Positions 8,078 to 27,279 of a stretch of 27,279 bases of DNA are shown one piece after another (positions within the stretch are counted from its first letter, which is position 1; the number at the start of each line of letters is the position of its first letter). The translations under genes were made by a program, and so were the position numbers. The notes under the pieces are model-generated. The model worked only from the letters and a program-made list of their open reading frames with translations. It did not search any database and was not told the origin of the DNA. Origin of the DNA: a virus (Duplodnaviria > Heunggongvirae > Uroviricota > Caudoviricetes); the IMG/VR virus record IMGVR_UViG_2541047774_000009; one strand, 5' to 3'.

Positions 8078-8081
8078 ATCC

Positions 8082-8107
8082 AAAAAATACCCCTCCGGAG
8101 AGGGGTA
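8082..8107 (-). terminator. Minus-strand intrinsic terminator (candidate tR'-like)
   Basis: Perfect 8-bp stem TACCCCTC/GAGGGGTA (8088-8095/8100-8107) with 4-nt loop, followed on the minus strand by a U6 run (plus-strand AAAAAA 8082-8087). Confidence 0.5.
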
Positions 8108-8396
8108 TCATACAAGGGGATGACCATGATGCATGGTGCCGGGTGCCTCCCGGTGAGTCCGGCATCAGCATACGAACCCGCGATTATCCCAGAACTGACT
8201 GCTGATTCGCCCCGCCGCTTAGGGGGATTCACCATGCGTTTTTTTATTTACAAACTCTTCGCCAGACAAACAACCATTAACTGGCTGAATTGTGAGGTAT
8301 TTCAATTTTTAGAAAACTGACCAACCTCCGCTTATACGCCGGGCATGGAGCGGATACAAAAAAGCCCCGCAAAAGCAGATCAGAAGGATTCGTTGT

Positions 8397-16571: not shown

Positions 16572-17400
16572 GACGATGCCCTCCGCTGATATTCAGGAGA
16601 CGGTGAATATGAAAATTAGCCTTATCCGCCAGACGAATACGTTCAGCTTGCAAGTTAAGAAGGGTTTCTACCAGAACCTGATGTGCCTGCGGATCCGAAA
16701 GAGTTACCTTGCGCAGAGCACGTAGTGCAGTTGTTACATAACTGAGTTTATGTAAGTCTTCATCATTCAGACGAGTGAGGGCTGGGACAGTAGCCATGAT
16801 GGCAGCCTCCGTATGCAATGGATAACTTCCACCACCGGAAACGCCAATTTCGCTGGTGGTGAACTGAGCAGGGTTGGCGTAACCGGCGCATACGGAAACC
16901 GGCGCACCTTTCGGTGCCCCCACCCAGCCCACCATAATTTGGGTATAGCTGAGTTGTAGCAACAAAAAAGACGCTAACGCGCCAATTGTCGCCGTATGCA
17001 ATTCCAGGACGCCAATCCCGGCACCCGCTTTATAAGGTGCCTGAACAGTGTAACGTCCCGGAATGGCAGAATCAATGTGCTGGTGGTCCTTCACACTCAA
17101 CAAAATCACGCCTGAATTTCCACAAAGGGCTAAAGCACTCATGCGGGTAGTCTTTGCGAAGATAGATAACGCGCTGTGTTTCTGGCTCCCAACGAATAAC
17201 ATGAACATAAAGTCCTCTTCCGTCACGAAACCAGCGGTTAAGTTCCTGCACAACTCGCCCCCCACAGTCAGGTAAAGTTCTCTGTGGTTACTTACAGCCA
17301 GGAGATTTGGTAATCTGCATTCATGCCGTAACAACAGGTGTTCAGCGACGCTGACCACCAGCTGTTGCGACAAACGGTTATTTGCCGTTAAACTGTTCAT
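16564..17400 (-). CDS. Hypothetical protein (278 aa)
   Basis: Long ORF tightly packed in early-right operon with ATGA overlap to upstream gene; no family recognised. Confidence 0.5.
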   Translation of the reverse strand: MNSLTANNRLSQQLVVSVAEHLLLRHECRLPNLLAVSNHRELYLTVGGELCRNLTAGFVTEEDFMFMLFVGSQKHSALSIFAKTTRMSALALCGNSGVILLSVKDHQHIDSAIPGRYTVQAPYKAGAGIGVLELHTATIGALASFLLLQLSYTQIMVGWVGAPKGAPVSVCAGYANPAQFTTSEIGVSGGGSYPLHTEAAIMATVPALTRLNDEDLHKLSYVTTALRALRKVTLSDPQAHQVLVETLLNLQAERIRLADKANFHIHRLLNISGGHRHA

Positions 17401-17960
17401 GCGTTAGTTTCTCCACAGACACAAAACGCCACGACGCCCGGAGCTGCACACTCGCGGGCGTCACTCTTTTCTGGAGCGCAAAAGATTTTGTAGACCAGTG
17501 CTGCATGCTCCTGGAGCTTCGAAATTGACAGATACAACTCATCATTAATTGCTGTCTGCTCGTGTGGCTCCACTATCCCATCTTCGATTGCCGAACGAAT
17601 CTGCTTTGAGTAACTCCCGATCTGTTCGATGACTTCCAGCAGGCGCTGGTTTATATCGGCGTTCTCTACTTCCTCAATTTCAGGAAGCGATACAAACACC
17701 CCACCAGCAGACTGTGCGACAGCATCCGCAATGTAGTGAGTGCCAGCCGCGCGCTGTAAAATCATTGCCCATCCCAGCGGGAAAATCTGATCGCCATCTG
17801 CACGAAGGCGGTTGAATAAAGCGTTCTCTGTTACATCCAGCCACTCAGCAGCTTCAGCGTAACCCCCCGGCAACGCCGCGATAGTTTTTCTGACAGCTTT
17901 CACGTACCACTCAGGCTGTTTTTCTACTTTCCAGTGATGCTTACCCACGGTTAGCCTCAT
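17397..17960 (-). CDS. Putative CII-like/YdaT-like early regulatory protein (187 aa)
   Basis: Second gene of the rightward early operon, 31 nt after cro-like gene; assignment by position and loose resemblance only. Confidence 0.35.
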   Translation of the reverse strand: MRLTVGKHHWKVEKQPEWYVKAVRKTIAALPGGYAEAAEWLDVTENALFNRLRADGDQIFPLGWAMILQRAAGTHYIADAVAQSAGGVFVSLPEIEEVENADINQRLLEVIEQIGSYSKQIRSAIEDGIVEPHEQTAINDELYLSISKLQEHAALVYKIFCAPEKSDARECAAPGVVAFCVCGETNA

Positions 17961-17991
17961 CGTTCTGTGGTTAAAAATTGAAGGTGTTCTG

Positions 17992-18192
17992 TTAATCTTT
18001 CGGATAGATATCCGGTCTTAAGTCAGATTTCGTAATTGCACCTGACGTGCATTGCTCAAGTTTTTTAGCCAGCACAAAACTGGCTTTTTTATAACCATTG
18101 AAAACCAGCCGTAAGTAGCCTGGTGTTGAGCCAACTTTTCCGGCCAACTCGCCCTGCTGTTCTTTGGTTAAAGAGTCCCAATACGCTTTCAT
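17992..18192 (-). CDS. cro: Cro-like HTH regulator (YdaS-like, 66 aa)
   Basis: Start ATG 18190-18192 with GGAGG 9 nt upstream; MKAYWDSLTKEQQGELAGKVGSTPGYLRLVFNGYKKAS... HTH; divergent from cI across an operator-containing 90-bp region. Confidence 0.7.
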   Translation of the reverse strand: MKAYWDSLTKEQQGELAGKVGSTPGYLRLVFNGYKKASFVLAKKLEQCTSGAITKSDLRPDIYPKD

Positions 18193-18282
18193 ACAATATG
18201 TACCTCCGGTATACATATTACATGATTGAGATGAACCTTCAAGATACTTGTACCTTATCGGTACAAAGGTTTTAATTTCTTT
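18193..18282. promoter_or_regulatory. Immunity-region operator/promoter region (OR-like) between cro and cI
   Basis: Perfect inverted repeat TTGTACCTTATCGGTACAA (18248-18266) and related site ATATGTACCTCCGGTATACATAT (18196-18218), both with TGTACC/GGTACA half-sites. Confidence 0.6.
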
Positions 18283-21530: not shown

Positions 21531-21638
21531 AAATCAGCACGTACGAATTCAAACTCTGCCATAAAAGAACATATAAGTAATTTATTAACATATAGATATA
21601 GGTTATATTACAAATTGAACAATTATTGGAGAGCAACA

Positions 21639-22505
21639 ATGAATCAAAATCCATTCTCATTCTATGACTTTCTTGGATATTTAATACCAGGTGGTTTTTT
21701 TATCCTATTAATGTATTTCTGTGGTTTGACATTCGATCTAGATATTGTTATTGACTTAAGTGAATTGCTCAGAGGTCAAAGTCAAATCTTTGGCATTTTG
21801 AACTACGCTTCAATAGTTATTATATCTTATATAGCTGGACATTTTATTTCTATCACGTCAGCATTTTTTATCGAAAAACACATGAATAAAGAATTAGGAT
21901 ATCCTTCCAAATATCTATTTAAAAAATTGATAGATACCTCAGAAAGCATTTGTAGCCCATCATGCGATGAGAGAAGCGCTGATAAAAAAACAAAAATAAA
22001 GAATCGCATAATCAAATGCGTATTATGCCCAATAATACTATGGGATTTTATAACACAAAAACTATGTTATTCTCAATCTCTACCATTTCATTTAGCTAAT
22101 ACAACATGGTTAATGATCAAAGAAGGTTATGAGAAAAAGTTCATAACAAATCGCCAATTATTACAAGATAAAAACGGACTTGATGATGATCTCTTCAGAT
22201 TGGCATATCATTATGTTTATGAGTTTTCAAAACAACATCAAACAAAAATTCAAAACTATGTTGCATTATATGGTTTTTGCAGAAACATATGTTTAATCTT
22301 TATAATTTCATTTTGGGTATCAGTTCCAACCTTTATTTATCGATTATGTACTCATAGTGATTATCTTTATAGTTTACTTTCAATAATGCTTAGCTTTTTC
22401 TTCGTCTATGTTTTCTATGTTGGTTTTGTTAAATTTTATAGAAGATATACTTTAGAAGTATTAATGGCATTTGCTGTACTTCAAAGTAACGACACTATTC
22501 GTTAA
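21639..22505 (+). CDS. Hypothetical multi-pass membrane protein (288 aa), AT-rich moron
   Basis: GGAGAG RBS before ATG 21639; at least five hydrophobic helices (e.g. FFILLMYFCGLTF, IFGILNYASIVIISYIAGHFISITSAFFI, CRNICLIFIISFWVSVPTFIY, LLSIMLSFFFVYVFYVGFV); very low GC relative to flanking phage DNA. Confidence 0.6.
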   Translation: MNQNPFSFYDFLGYLIPGGFFILLMYFCGLTFDLDIVIDLSELLRGQSQIFGILNYASIVIISYIAGHFISITSAFFIEKHMNKELGYPSKYLFKKLIDTSESICSPSCDERSADKKTKIKNRIIKCVLCPIILWDFITQKLCYSQSLPFHLANTTWLMIKEGYEKKFITNRQLLQDKNGLDDDLFRLAYHYVYEFSKQHQTKIQNYVALYGFCRNICLIFIISFWVSVPTFIYRLCTHSDYLYSLLSIMLSFFFVYVFYVGFVKFYRRYTLEVLMAFAVLQSNDTIR

Positions 22506-22546
22506 TAATGTTGCTCCCGTGTGCAGACGGGATAATGGAGAAACGT

Positions 22547-22753
22547 ATGCTGAACCTCGATTGTGTTCCTATCTCAACTTATTGCAAAGAAACTGGCGAA
22601 ACTCCTGAAGCAATAAACAAACGTGTACAGCGCGGTGTTTGGCGTGAAGGTGTTCAGGTTTTAAAGGTTGAAGGCGTTAAGGAGAGGTGGATTGATCTTA
22701 GTGAGGTTGCAAAATGGGCCAGACAAAACTGCTCAAACTACCGCGCGGCGTAA
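22547..22753 (+). CDS. xis: Excisionase-like protein (68 aa; alternative start 22535)
   Basis: Small basic ORF immediately upstream of and overlapping int by 40 nt; GGAG RBS; resembles prophage excisionase-like proteins. Confidence 0.6.
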   Translation: MLNLDCVPISTYCKETGETPEAINKRVQRGVWREGVQVLKVEGVKERWIDLSEVAKWARQNCSNYRAA

Positions 22754-23889
22754 CAATCAGGAAACACCGCCAGGGCGAAACGATCAATATAACTTTCACC
22801 TACAAAGGAGTTAGATGTCGTGAGCCGCTTTCCAATCTGGAAGTAACACCAAAGAACATTAAATACGCCGAGCGTACACTCGGCGAAATCCATAATAAGA
22901 TCGAAAGGGGAACATTCATTTATGCAGAATATTTTCCCCGTTCTGCTCGTTTGAAAATTTTTGGTAATGCTGCTGCAGGCAAAACGGTAAAGATGTACCT
23001 GGACGAATATCTTGAAATCTGCGAAACAAGAAAACTTTCACCCTCTACGATTGGTGGCTATAAAAAATGCCGTAGTGCGTTAGCCTCACTTCACATTTGC
23101 CCTGCAAGTGAATTAACACCAGCAACCCTGAAAGCGTGGATTCAAAGCCAGAAAACAACCTTAAAAACCATTCGCAACCAGTTATCTTTCCTGCGGTCAG
23201 CACTTGATGAAGCCGTGACCGATGGGGTACTTCAAATTAACCCCGTATCGTTAGTAACAGCTTCGCGCTACCAAAGTGATAAGTCAGAAGCAGAAAGCAG
23301 CTATGTGGTTGATCCGCTATCACCAGCAGAAGTTGATGCATTACTAGCAGCAGCCGGAAACAAACAATGGGAAAATCTGTTCCGGTTCGCTATACATACA
23401 GGCCTGCGTAGTTCTGAACTATGTGCCCTTCGATGGCGTGATATCGACTTTGTTGGAAAAACAGCACATGTCCAGAGCGCAAGTGTTGTTGGTGTTATCA
23501 AAGGGACCAAAACAAAAGCCGGTACTCGTAAAGTTGAACTGACAGAAGAGGCAATGTTGGCGCTGATAAATCAGAAGCCATTTACGTTCATGAAAGATGC
23601 TACGGTCTTTGAAGATCCAAAGACCAATAAGCCTTGGGCAAGTGCTGATGCAATCAGGAAAAAAGCATGGGTGCCAACATTGCGAAAAGCAGGTATTCGC
23701 TACAGAAACCCATATCAGACCAGGCACACTTATGCTACTAAGTACATTAGCCAAGGAGCTAATCTCTTCTGGCTAGCAGGGCAGATGGGGCATAAGGGGC
23801 CCGAAATGTTGTTTCGTCATTATGGGCGTTACTTGAGTGATTATGACAACCACAGCTCAACAACGCTCACAAGTAATTGCAAAAAGTAG
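22714..23889 (+). CDS. int: Tyrosine integrase (391 aa)
   Basis: Catalytic-domain motifs HTGLRSSEL (Arg), RHTYATK (His/Arg) and LFRHYGRYL (Tyr nucleophile); N-terminal arm-binding-like domain. Confidence 0.9.
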   Translation: MGQTKLLKLPRGVTIRKHRQGETINITFTYKGVRCREPLSNLEVTPKNIKYAERTLGEIHNKIERGTFIYAEYFPRSARLKIFGNAAAGKTVKMYLDEYLEICETRKLSPSTIGGYKKCRSALASLHICPASELTPATLKAWIQSQKTTLKTIRNQLSFLRSALDEAVTDGVLQINPVSLVTASRYQSDKSEAESSYVVDPLSPAEVDALLAAAGNKQWENLFRFAIHTGLRSSELCALRWRDIDFVGKTAHVQSASVVGVIKGTKTKAGTRKVELTEEAMLALINQKPFTFMKDATVFEDPKTNKPWASADAIRKKAWVPTLRKAGIRYRNPYQTRHTYATKYISQGANLFWLAGQMGHKGPEMLFRHYGRYLSDYDNHSSTTLTSNCKK

Positions 23890-24139
23890 CCTTGAGCAAG
23901 GTAAAGCATGTTATTCAAAGAAGCCTATTTCGTTCAAAACGAGAGGTCCTCCACAAATCCACGCTTGAATAGGTATTCTTTACAATTATGAGCATACCCC
24001 TTATAGATTTATTCCATTGAAAAATGCCATCCCCCTGATAAAACAACAGTATTATTGTTTCAAAAAAAATGTTATAAGTAAATTCACTTACATGTAACGT
24101 TTAAATTTTTGTTTAAGAAGTATAAATTAGAGGGATAAA

Positions 24140-24991
24140 ATGACTACACCAGTAATAAGTTTCATAAATATGAAAGGTGGGGTTGGTAAAACAACTTTAT
24201 GCGTCGGCATTGCTGAATATCTTGCAAACTTCATGGATAAAAAGGTATTAATTATCGATATTGACCCACAATTTAACGCTACACAGTCAATACTTAGTAA
24301 ATATGATCGAGTGAAAGAGTATATAGCTGATCACTTAGAAAATACAAAAACCATCAGACGAATATTCGAGACAAAATCAAGCTTAACGGGTAAAGTTCAG
24401 CAGGTCACTCCTGATGAAATTATCATCAAGATGTCAGAGCACTTAGATATGATTTTTGGTGATATTAATACAATATTTGATATTGAACAACCTGCGGCAA
24501 GATTACATAAGCTAAAACGCTTTATAGAAGAACATAAGCTTCGAGATATATATGACTTCATTTTGATCGATAGCCCACCAACCATTTCATTATTTACTGA
24601 TGCAGCTCTCGTTGCTTCAGATTATTATATTGTGCCAGTTAAAATTGACCACTACTCAATTTTAGGTGCGACAAGTCTTTTAAGCGTAATAGAAAACATT
24701 CAAGATAATTATGACCATAAAAACATTCAAAACCTTGGTTTTATTTATACTAATACCCTAGAAAATCTATCAAAAAAGACAAAAAAGCTAAAGACAGACT
24801 TTGAAAGTACTGAACCTTTTAATGAACTATACTTTTTTGATAACCAGTTGAAGTTTGTACAGGATTTGATGGTGGGTGGTAGAGGTAATATATCATCAAG
24901 TTATAAATCATCCAGAAAATATATCAAAGCGATTTGTGAAGAGTTTTTAAGTCGGATCCAAGAAGTGCAAACGGGGGGGGAAGATGAATAA
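24140..24991 (+). CDS. ParA/MinD-family P-loop ATPase (283 aa)
   Basis: Deviant Walker A MKGGVGKTT, IDIDPQFNATQ motif, ILIDSPPTISLF Walker B-like segment; AGAGGGA RBS; AT-rich. Confidence 0.85.
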   Translation: MTTPVISFINMKGGVGKTTLCVGIAEYLANFMDKKVLIIDIDPQFNATQSILSKYDRVKEYIADHLENTKTIRRIFETKSSLTGKVQQVTPDEIIIKMSEHLDMIFGDINTIFDIEQPAARLHKLKRFIEEHKLRDIYDFILIDSPPTISLFTDAALVASDYYIVPVKIDHYSILGATSLLSVIENIQDNYDHKNIQNLGFIYTNTLENLSKKTKKLKTDFESTEPFNELYFFDNQLKFVQDLMVGGRGNISSSYKSSRKYIKAICEEFLSRIQEVQTGGEDE

Positions 24992-25397
24992 AAATAGTAA
25001 CAACCTCGAATTATTACAGACATTGGTTTATAAGAAGCCCTCGTCAAAAGAAGCGTTTATTGGTTTGATAACAATAGCAATCTATTCTAGGGAAATTTTT
25101 GTTAAAAATGAAGATGCAGCAGAATTCGTAAAAAATGTATTTGGATTAAGTTTCTTAGACTACGTCATCAAGTCAAGAACTTTATTATGCGCTAGACTTA
25201 CCCGTAATCTTGTAAATATGAGCGAGAGAGACATTAAAGAATGCATATATAAAGCATCAGAGTATTTTAAAACTGACAAATTTATTATTGGATATAATGA
25301 AAACTCACTTACTTTTAAAAAAAGTAACGTCAAACGTAATGCAAATCGAGATGTAGGTACGTGGATTAATGCTCTTTTGAAGAAGGATAGAAAATAA
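24984..25397 (+). CDS. Hypothetical protein (137 aa), second gene of ParA-like operon
   Basis: Start overlaps ParA stop by 8 nt; Lys/Asn-rich; no family recognised. Confidence 0.5.
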   Translation: MNKNSNNLELLQTLVYKKPSSKEAFIGLITIAIYSREIFVKNEDAAEFVKNVFGLSFLDYVIKSRTLLCARLTRNLVNMSERDIKECIYKASEYFKTDKFIIGYNENSLTFKKSNVKRNANRDVGTWINALLKKDRK

Positions 25398-26062
25398 TGC
25401 TTCAAAGAGACCCACATGGATTTAGAAAAGACGTAAAAGAATTTATCACAATGATAAAATCATTTCAGGTCGATATTCGCACCGAAAACAATCTTACATC
25501 GGCTTATAAACATGTGCTTTTTCTGGAGTTTATCCATAACTCACATCCAGAAATAAGTCACAAAACCTTTATAAAAAGTATTATTTATGATGTTTTAAGT
25601 TCAATTACAGCGATACTTCATAAACGAGAGCGATATCTTCATCTTAATTTTCGCTCAATGATTGAACATCTTGCACGTATATCCTTACAAAAAGTTGATA
25701 ACGGGGGGGATTTCGATATTACAATTAGAACTCTTGATTTCGAGAATCTTAAATCTACCAACACTGATGAAAACTGGGCGTACATGCATTCACAGTATAA
25801 ACAAGCATGTGGCTGGTTACACTCATCATCTAAAGTTAAATTAAATATCACAGCATCATTTCCAGATTTATTAAAGTCTGATTCAAAAAGTAATGCAGCT
25901 AAACTGTCAACCCATTTGCAAAAGATGACTACCGAAATGTTAAAGATTTTTTTTAACTACTATGTTGATGAGATTCAAACTTCTTTTTACCGCACACGGG
26001 GAGAAATGAGGTATGTGCTTGGCAACCATAACTTCGAATATTTTTTAAGCAAGAATCCATAA
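25397..26062 (+). CDS. Hypothetical protein (221 aa), third gene of ParA-like operon
   Basis: ATG overlaps upstream stop (TAATG), AAGGA RBS; no family recognised. Confidence 0.5.
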   Translation: MLQRDPHGFRKDVKEFITMIKSFQVDIRTENNLTSAYKHVLFLEFIHNSHPEISHKTFIKSIIYDVLSSITAILHKRERYLHLNFRSMIEHLARISLQKVDNGGDFDITIRTLDFENLKSTNTDENWAYMHSQYKQACGWLHSSSKVKLNITASFPDLLKSDSKSNAAKLSTHLQKMTTEMLKIFFNYYVDEIQTSFYRTRGEMRYVLGNHNFEYFLSKNP

Positions 26063-26152
26063 ATATATATTTCCTTAAAAAGGATACGTGAAGTACACGA
26101 AGCATGCGAGAAATAAAATAAAAAAATAAAAATCAATAAATTAAAAACAAAT

Positions 26153-26184
26153 GGACGCTGGTTCAACTCCCGCCAGCTCCACCA
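26153..26184 (+). other. ssrA: 3'-terminal fragment of ssrA (tmRNA) forming an attachment-site junction
   Basis: GGACGCTGGTTCAACTCCCGCCAGCTCCACCA matches the E. coli tmRNA 3' end (T-arm and CCA) with one G-to-T difference in the T-stem; upstream sequence is AT-rich and unrelated to the ssrA body. Confidence 0.8.
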
Positions 26185-26231
26185 AAATTCTCCATCGGTG
26201 ATTACCAGAGTCATCCGATGAAGTCCTAAGA

Positions 26232-26264
26232 GCCCGCACGGCGCAAGCCCTGCGGGCTTTTTTG
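26232..26264 (+). terminator. Intrinsic terminator downstream of ssrA 3' end
   Basis: GCCCGCA...TGCGGGC stem followed by TTTTTT. Confidence 0.6.
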
Positions 26265-26388
26265 TGCCTTGAATTTGTCCCGCGAAGTCTGATGCCAACT
26301 AATTAAATCCGAACCTTTTAGGCACCTTGTTAGGCACCTCATAAAGCTTTATTGTTTTTGAGGTGCCTAAAACTATGGAAACCCGGCA

Positions 26389-27279
26389 ATGGCAAGACAA
26401 ACCAAACCTCTCTCCGTTAAGGAAATCGAATCAGCCAAACCCAAAGAAGTGGACTACGTTCTCTATGATGGTGATGGCCTTGAGCTACTCATCAAATCCA
26501 GCGGGAGTAAAATCTGGCAGTTTCGCTACATTCGCCCTGTCACCAAGAAACGTGCGAAGAAGAGCATTGGCCCCTACCCGTCAGTTACGCTTGCCGATGC
26601 AAGAAACTATCGCGCAGAGTCTCGTTCTCTTCTGGCGAAACAAATCGACCCTCAGGAACATCAGCAAGAACAACTTCGCAGTTCGCTGGAAGCTAAAACC
26701 AATACTTTCCAGCTCGTGGCTGAACGTTGGTGGAATGTGAAGAAAACCAGTGTGACCGAAGACTACGCAGAGGATATCTGGCGCTCTCTTGAGAGAGATG
26801 TTTTTCCTGCGATTGGCGACGTTAGCGTTACAGATATTAAAGCTCACACACTGGTTCAGGCCGTCCAACCGGTTCAGGCCAGAGGAGCACTGGAAACCGT
26901 TCGTCGCCTGTGTCAGCGCATTAATGAGGTCATGATCTATGCCCAAAACACAGGGCTGATTGATGCTGTACCCAGCGTTAATATCGGTAAAGCATTCGAG
27001 AAGCCTCAGAAAAAGAACATGCCCAGCATTCGACCGGATCAGCTACCACAACTGATGCAAACAATGCGAACAGCCAGCATTAGTCTTTCCACACGCTGCC
27101 TGTTCATGTGGCAACTCCTTACTATTAGCCGCCCTGCCGAAGCGGCTGAAGCACGCTGGGAAGAGGTAGACATAGAAGCGCGAGAGTGGAAGATTCCTGC
27201 AGCACGTATGAAAATGAACCGCGACCATACTGTTCCATTGTCAGATGAAGCAATTGTGTCAACGACGGATGAAAAGTGA
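26389..27279 (+). CDS. intA: IntA-like (P4/CP4-57 family) integrase, apparently truncated at 296 aa
   Basis: MARQTKPLSVKEIESAKPKEVDYVLYDGDGLELLIKSSGSKIWQFRYIRP... P4-family integrase N-terminal and core-binding regions; in-frame TGA at 27277-27279 before the catalytic His/Arg/Tyr region. Confidence 0.75.
   Translation: MARQTKPLSVKEIESAKPKEVDYVLYDGDGLELLIKSSGSKIWQFRYIRPVTKKRAKKSIGPYPSVTLADARNYRAESRSLLAKQIDPQEHQQEQLRSSLEAKTNTFQLVAERWWNVKKTSVTEDYAEDIWRSLERDVFPAIGDVSVTDIKAHTLVQAVQPVQARGALETVRRLCQRINEVMIYAQNTGLIDAVPSVNIGKAFEKPQKKNMPSIRPDQLPQLMQTMRTASISLSTRCLFMWQLLTISRPAEAAEARWEEVDIEAREWKIPAARMKMNRDHTVPLSDEAIVSTTDEK

Follow-up and report, generated by a model that had tools for sequence, protein, structure and literature searches.

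A displaced ssrA 3' end is very probably shared by a lambdoid prophage, as attR, and a CP4-57-type island, as attL

Introduction

What does a piece of the tmRNA gene (ssrA) of only 32 nucleotides mark when it stands between a block of AT-rich genes and the start of an integrase gene? The question is raised by a stretch of viral DNA of 27,279 nucleotides (Caudoviricetes; IMG/VR record IMGVR_UViG_2541047774_000009), which was analysed as a whole and is called the window below. Tandem integrative elements at the tmRNA gene were reportedly treated by Williams in 2003 under the title 'Traffic at the tmRNA gene'. Arrays of this kind, at tRNA as well as tmRNA genes, are catalogued as a matter of routine, the strongest enrichment being found for the tmRNA gene as a target (PMC4383910). 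A first-pass annotation of the window, made from the sequence alone, had read the fragment as the junction of two tandem elements, formed when a lambdoid prophage integrated into ssrA beside a resident CP4-57-like island. In this study, the fragment, its two flanks and the repeats upstream of the integrase gene were compared with those of related phages, lysogens and islands. The fragment is very likely a composite site, its left half being attR of a lambdoid prophage of about 50 kb and its right half attL of a CP4-57-type island, and we hold the full mechanism set out below to be equally well founded.

The ssrA fragment

The 3' end of E. coli ssrA (GGACGCGGGTTCAACTCCCGCCAGCTCCACCA) has a single match in the window, on the plus strand, with 31 of 32 nt identical; no match was obtained in 100 shuffled sequences. 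ARAGORN detected neither a tmRNA nor a tRNA over the whole window and Rfam detected no tmRNA, so the body of ssrA is absent from the window and the matched piece is the only part of tmRNA that it holds, as the first-pass annotation had stated. The sole mismatch is a T at 26159 replacing tmRNA G338 (numbering checked on K-12 ssrA). The G338–C350 pair is the middle pair of the tmRNA T-stem, and the earlier description of a G-to-T change in this stem was correct. The T357 of tmRNA is kept in the fragment, at 26178. The AT-rich cargo reported to the left is likewise real, the G+C content being 31–33% over 24001–26000 as against 45–58% elsewhere in the window. The left side of the junction is composed as follows.

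26063–26152, no strand assigned: P arm of the prophage attR, nearly identical in the attP of circular phage record L003 and in attR of GF47 and MB06234 (one A/C difference in the aligned stretch)
26153–26184, plus strand: displaced ssrA 3' end (tmRNA nt 332–363), read as the core of the prophage attR and of the island attL at once

Attachment sites of the prophage

Attachment sites were aligned from the window, the circular record L003, the lysogens GF47 and MB06234, and ET358, which carries the island only. L003 is a 44.6-kb circular record of a closely related phage; it was deposited as a plasmid, and we read it as a circular phage genome, the genes listed for it being essentially all of phage type except for accessory genes that flank att. 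At 17933–18236 it joins both prophage ends across the same ssrA fragment, in the order P arm–GGACGCtGGTTCAACTCCCGCCAGCTCCACCA–P' arm, which is the attP of the free element. In MB06234, attL consists of an intact ssrA with G338 followed by P', and in GF47 of an ssrA identical to that of K-12, again followed by P'. In the window, GF47 and MB06234, attR consists of the P arm and the T-bearing ssrA fragment, and in ET358 ssrA is joined directly to DNA that matches the window from 26185 onwards. The intact, co-oriented ssrA at the other prophage end is seen in the relatives GF47 and MB06234; it lies outside this window.

The T found at 26159 is thus shared by attP and attR, while attB and attL lack it, and T338 is therefore phage DNA. 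Since the T occurs in attP and in the displaced fragment, and G338 in the rebuilt ssrA, the crossover must lie inside the 26-nt block of identity between attP and attB at 26160–26185 (nt 339–363 plus one base). The exchange falls to the right of the T, in agreement with the earlier suggestion of a phage-derived arm that extends up to the crossover point.

The motif AAAAAGGATACG, at 26077–26088, has one copy on either arm of the phage attP (L003 17947–17958 and 18142–18153), and the 9-mer AAGGATACG has only two occurrences in the 44.6-kb phage, one per arm. The AAAAAGGATACG pair, which emerged from a k-mer comparison of both arms, may be an arm-type site of the phage integrase; a repeat search in the phage attP returned nothing beyond the terminator hairpin and, on P', a weak pair of 16 nt.

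The phage P' arm (L003 18056–18210) is an approximately 90% copy of a segment of which 4170 of 5426 E. coli genomes have a single copy, at the outer end of the ssrA array (L005 22687–22840); in K-12 the segment lies to the right of CP4-57. The idea that the K-12 DNA in this place is a relic of the phage was rejected in view of this distribution, the copies showing 85–92% identity. The segment is apparently the native ssrA trailer, in which case the phage would rebuild ssrA with a native-like trailer and with its own terminator.

The prophage and its cargo

The GF47 prophage is 99.6% identical to 2300–26186 of the window, the homology breaking off where the ssrA fragment ends. The genes stand in an inverted lambdoid order: the terminase, lysis, Q and replication genes are on the minus strand, while the repressor, the early genes, xis and int are on the plus strand, with xis and int reading towards the ssrA fragment. 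An integrase gene with xis just upstream lies between the fragment and the side on which the intact gene is found in the relatives. The genes nearest to the attachment site are as follows.

22508–22753, plus strand: open reading frame of xis, the excisionase of the lambdoid prophage (the start annotated in GF47 corresponds to 22547; PHROG excisionase phrog_2917, E 8e-45)
22714–23889, plus strand: int, the prophage tyrosine integrase of 391 amino acids (Pfam Arm-DNA-bind_2 and Phage_integrase)
24140–26062, plus strand: cargo region of three AT-rich genes separating int from att (G+C 31–33%)
24140–24991, plus strand: cargo gene for a ParA-like ATPase (Pfam AAA_31/CbiA)
24984–25397 and 25397–26062, plus strand: cargo genes for two phage-family proteins of unknown function (PHROGs)

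The int protein is 100% identical to the integrase of L003 and 83–89% identical to the integrases that adjoin ssrA fragments in five other species. The cargo set matches PHROGs 164, 6264 and 7540, and a Pfam search of the three cargo genes gave no match for two of them. A role of the cargo as a defence system was considered and dropped, PADLOC yielding only a 63-residue P-loop match to PDC-M28B and a marginal one to TRIP13. The slot between int and att holds exchangeable AT-rich cargo: N1286 (L006 30834–32704) carries a different set of three genes there, on the opposite strand and including a STAS-like protein, and in Trabulsiella the slot is empty. Just upstream of xis lies a further, very AT-rich open reading frame (21615–22505; 28–30% G+C; 296 amino acids; PHROG 12528, of unknown function) with a weak PADLOC match to the membrane protein Csx27 (E 3e-6). 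Three Rfam matches above the gathering score, STnc100, C4 antisense RNA and isrK, fall inside the prophage, at 8078–8266, 16852–16939 and 16964–17040, all on the minus strand.

The island arm and intA

To the right of the fragment, 110 of 116 positions (26185–26300) match the DNA that follows ssrA in K-12. The DNA starting at 26185 is the attL arm of a CP4-57-type island; it directly follows an intact ssrA in many genomes. A terminator-like hairpin at 26245–26259 with a T run lies in this arm, and the distance of 204 nt from the end of ssrA to the intA ATG is kept in about 70 species. The features on this side are listed below.

26185–26388, plus strand: P' arm of the CP4-57-type island, comprising an ssrA trailer from the island, the terminator (about 26232–26264) and the intA upstream region; 175 of 204 positions identical to K-12
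26389–27256, plus strand: 5' part of intA, 868 nt, codons 1–289 of 413, encoding the arm-binding and central domains and the start of the catalytic domain
27257–27279, no strand assigned: terminus of IS100 (IS21 family) inserted in intA; the identical 23-mer stands next to the IS100 istB in E. coli Nissle 1917, and the window ends inside the element

The gene that comes next after the 3' end of ssrA thus encodes a P4-family tyrosine integrase (Pfam matches to Arm-DNA-bind_3, to Phage_int_M and, in part, to Phage_integrase, profile positions 3–76 of 172). The window IntA is identical to that of K-12 at 242 of 289 residues (84%), with 72% identity over residues 1–95 and 90% over residues 96–289. 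These figures, together with the match of the arm, confirm the CP4-57-like DNA and the intA-type gene that had been noticed here at first. Homology to every other intA ends at 27256, and the last 23 nt have short matches in thousands of records, several of which are annotated as IS21-family transposase. The gene stops at codon 289, short of the region of the catalytic tyrosine, and an island whose intA is cut there by IS100 lacks a catalytic domain of its own and cannot move on its own integrase. The right end of the window is probably that of an assembly contig broken in the IS100 repeat.

Repeats upstream of intA

Three copies of an octamer had been noted upstream of intA. They are real and longer than reported, being exact 10-mers:

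26318–26327, plus strand: predicted arm-type site P'1, TTAGGCACCT
26330–26339, plus strand: predicted arm-type site P'2, TTAGGCACCT, 12 bp from P'1
26361–26370, minus strand: predicted arm-type site P'3, TTAGGCACCT inverted, 19 bp before the intA ATG

The three exact matches in the window compare with 0.03 expected, and no shuffled sequence reached three. In a survey of 69 species, the repeat upstream of full-length intA was of the TTAGGCACCT type in 42 loci and of the TAGGCCCA type in 27, K-12 among the latter. The layout is constant across both types, the direct copies standing at about −71 and −59, 12 bp from each other, and the inverted copy at about −28, and all three copies change type as a set. 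Fifteen IntA residues have no overlap between the repeat types; all lie at amino acids 9–74, in the Pfam arm-binding domain, and the other approximately 340 residues contain no type-diagnostic position.

This association could partly reflect physical linkage, as the sites are at most 71 nt from the codons concerned. The far ends of the islands, however, are concordant, which disfavours linkage as the explanation. There, in DNA that is otherwise divergent, a pair of motifs 12 bp apart lies 70–85 bp to the left of the core. The pairs are TAGGCACC in five E. coli islands and in C. amalonaticus, and TAGGACCA/TGGGACCA in K-12, while a far-end site in Cedecea is TAGGCCCA; both ends were read directly for three islands (ET358, K-12 and C. 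amalonaticus P55), and the type of three more was assigned from high identity. The motif therefore occurs on both arms, P and P', in relatives of the window island. Because the sites on both arms follow the N-terminal domain of IntA, the three TTAGGCACCT repeats are very probably arm-type sites of IntA. The arm-type reading offered at first from their appearance is thus favoured by two comparative observations, the tracking of the IntA domain and the matching far-end pairs.

The same observations bear on the alternative that the TTAGGCACCT repeats are operators for another island protein, for example the excisionase and activator AlpA. AlpA activates expression of intA. CP4-57 excision is induced in published work by overproducing AlpA (PMC10107115), and attL of KplE1 contains excisionase sites alongside the Int arm sites (PMC2951348); among 41 variable columns of AlpA from 18 loci, however, none tracks the repeat type, against 15 residues in the arm-binding domain of IntA, and the presence of one motif on both arms is typical of Int arm sites. 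We consider an operator function in place of IntA binding quite improbable. With the repeats taken as IntA sites, their position just upstream of intA suggests that IntA probably represses its own gene. This proposal rests on analogy, a consensus promoter scan of 25900–26500 having found no site; IntS of KplE1 and Int of P4 have been shown to control their own expression (PMC2951348).

T357 in the core copies

Far-end core copies of IntA-type islands share TTCAGACTCCGCCAGC, and T357 is missing in all of them. The copies noted are the following.

Far-end core copies: L005 22675–22690; L061 1786; L065 1835; L089, L091 and L093; L001 20873

The intact form, TTCAGACTCCGCCAGC-CCACCA, lacks T357 in 7 of 7 intact copies examined, and two more far-end copies (FEX669 and strain 1105) have larger deletions at the same place; two of the far-end copies examined sit in island–island junctions. 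Fragments of the phage type mostly keep T357, MB06234 and C. freundii L033 being the exceptions. The uniformity across island copies suggests that the loss of T357 is a feature of the island attP and not decay. Excision of CP4-57 leaves an ssrA without T357, which is reported to inactivate tmRNA (PMC10107115); if T357 lay inside the strand-exchange overlap, the pattern in the genomes would be reconciled with this published product.

A wider proposal, which we offer as possible but doubtful, links the two observations: arm sites would be recognized in the IntA family with two natural specificities, TTAGGCACC and TAGGCCCA, determined by some 15 residues between positions 9 and 74 of an otherwise freely recombining integrase, and the missing T357 would be part of the island attP. 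If this were true, the TTAGGCACC and TAGGCCCA types of IntA would form a ready-made pair for a specificity swap, and the presence or absence of the T in a junction fragment (26178 here) would record which recombinase acted last.

Proposed history and order of arrival

The composite site is very probably explained as follows. The attP of the phage carries ssrA nt 332–363 with T338, followed by the approximately 90% copy of the native trailer and by the phage's own terminator, and the phage integrase would have exchanged strands somewhere within the 26-nt block (nt 339–363 plus one base). Chromosomal ssrA would thereby have kept G338 and gained a 3' end, trailer and terminator supplied by the phage, while the old 3' end, with all the DNA downstream of it, would have been displaced by about 50 kb, to the end of the prophage that is nearest to int. 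That downstream DNA would be an island inserted at this site on an earlier occasion, which is why its arm and intA now abut the phage, the order of the two events being presumed. The N-terminal arm-binding domain of IntA would bind the TTAGGCACCT repeats, two direct and one inverted near intA, and IntA bound there would probably repress its own promoter, as in P4 and KplE1. The phage keeps xis and int together with both halves of att, and is predicted to be able to excise, restoring ssrA exactly and returning G338; the island, having lost the catalytic half of IntA to IS100, is predicted not to excise by its own enzyme and to be locked in place.

The structure itself is hardly in doubt. The window ends are probably contig breaks in repeats, as with IS100 at the right, which is the one circumstance that might point to an assembly artefact; but an agreement of 31 of 32 nt where none was expected, the recurrence of the same junction in several complete genomes and the exact coincidence of the left breakpoint of the fragment with the phage attP reduce to almost nothing the probability of a match by chance, of an artefact, or of a duplicated ssrA that lost its body and left this remnant. 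As for the order of arrival, the same structure would result if the phage had been resident first and the island had then entered the phage's displaced ssrA fragment. The fragment does hold the whole short core of IntA-type islands, the duplicated piece in K-12 being annotated as 14 nt, and the island core copies lack T357, as do the phage–island junctions of MB06234 and C. freundii (L033), which would be easier to understand if IntA had acted there. The window fragment, however, keeps its T357. In more than 20 of the best 30 E. coli records this island arm comes straight after ssrA; the phage, itself intact, is almost the same as the GF47 copy, which has a different neighbour; and the island integrase is already broken by IS100. 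Because the direct ssrA–island arrangement is common, the phage intact and near-identical to a differently neighboured copy and the island damaged, arrival of the phage after the island is the more economical reading and is favoured here, and we regard the reverse history as unlikely, if distinctly less so than an artefact. The first-pass picture of a prophage integrating beside a resident island therefore stands as far as the tandem att junction and the displaced 3' end are concerned; the prior residence of the island is not proved by the junction.

Relation to known systems

Taken with the intact ssrA seen in relatives, the window has the organization of the tandem arrays at the tmRNA gene in the Islander catalogue, in which each element contributes an integrase gene and a displaced 3' fragment behind an intact target gene and the attP of each element carries the fragment that rebuilds the gene (PMC4383910). 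It does not differ from these in principle, pairing a lambdoid phage with an island that has a P4-type integrase. An experimental parallel is provided by phage PhiNP of Citrobacter rodentium, which integrates into K-12 ssrA next to CP4-57 (PMC6456863) and produces the order ssrA–phage–fragment–CP4-57, like the tandem in the window. PhiNP uses the same 25-bp core, GGTTCAACTCCCGCCAGCTCCACCA, which corresponds to a 25-nt part of the 26160–26185 block. PhiNP, however, is a P2-like myovirus with another integrase, whereas the window phage is lambdoid, and the ssrA copy of the window-type phage is 7 nt longer than that of PhiNP, has one mismatch and is accompanied by the copied native trailer.

CP4-57 of K-12, with IntA and AlpA (PMC10107115; PMC3105296), occupies the same place after ssrA as the window island, with the trailer and terminator region, the integrase homology and the three-repeat layout before intA described above; the window island differs in having TTAGGCACCT where CP4-57 has TAGGCCCA, and in an intA interrupted by IS100. 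The body of this island, where alpA and a second copy of the core would be expected, lies beyond the right end of the window. As in the attL–intS region of KplE1 (CPS-53) and the att–int region of P4 (PMC2951348; Piazzolla et al., 2006, cited therein), the integrase gene reads away from attL, and the recombination arm contains both its control region and the arm-type sites. In both of those elements Int represses its own gene; their targets, argW and leuX, and their integrase subfamily are different from the ssrA target and the integrase found here.

Tandem use of ssrA is long known and has been reproduced experimentally in K-12, and the junction in the window is an ordinary one that introduces no new principle. 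It matters mainly for annotation: the exact point at which the prophage ends on its right and the island begins on its left is fixed at 26184/26185, the live ssrA of this strain would end in phage-supplied DNA, and the phage is predicted to be still able to leave cleanly. From the arm-site comparison comes a recognition code, concrete and open to testing, for an integrase family that is very widespread: dozens of Enterobacterales species have IntA-type islands at ssrA.

Occurrence of the junction in other genomes

The junction of phage, fragment and island is found in the complete genomes of MB06234, where the phage is decayed, and N1286, where the phage has a variant integrase and different cargo. 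In 5 of 80 IntA loci from different species, a phage-like integrase gene stands immediately to the left of the ssrA fragment and the island arm; these loci are from Trabulsiella, two Kosakonia, Citrobacter freundii and Buttiauxella. In GF47 (L004 45540–50000), the attR fragment is followed by a P2-like prophage with ogr, gpD and tail genes, which constitutes another tandem at ssrA.
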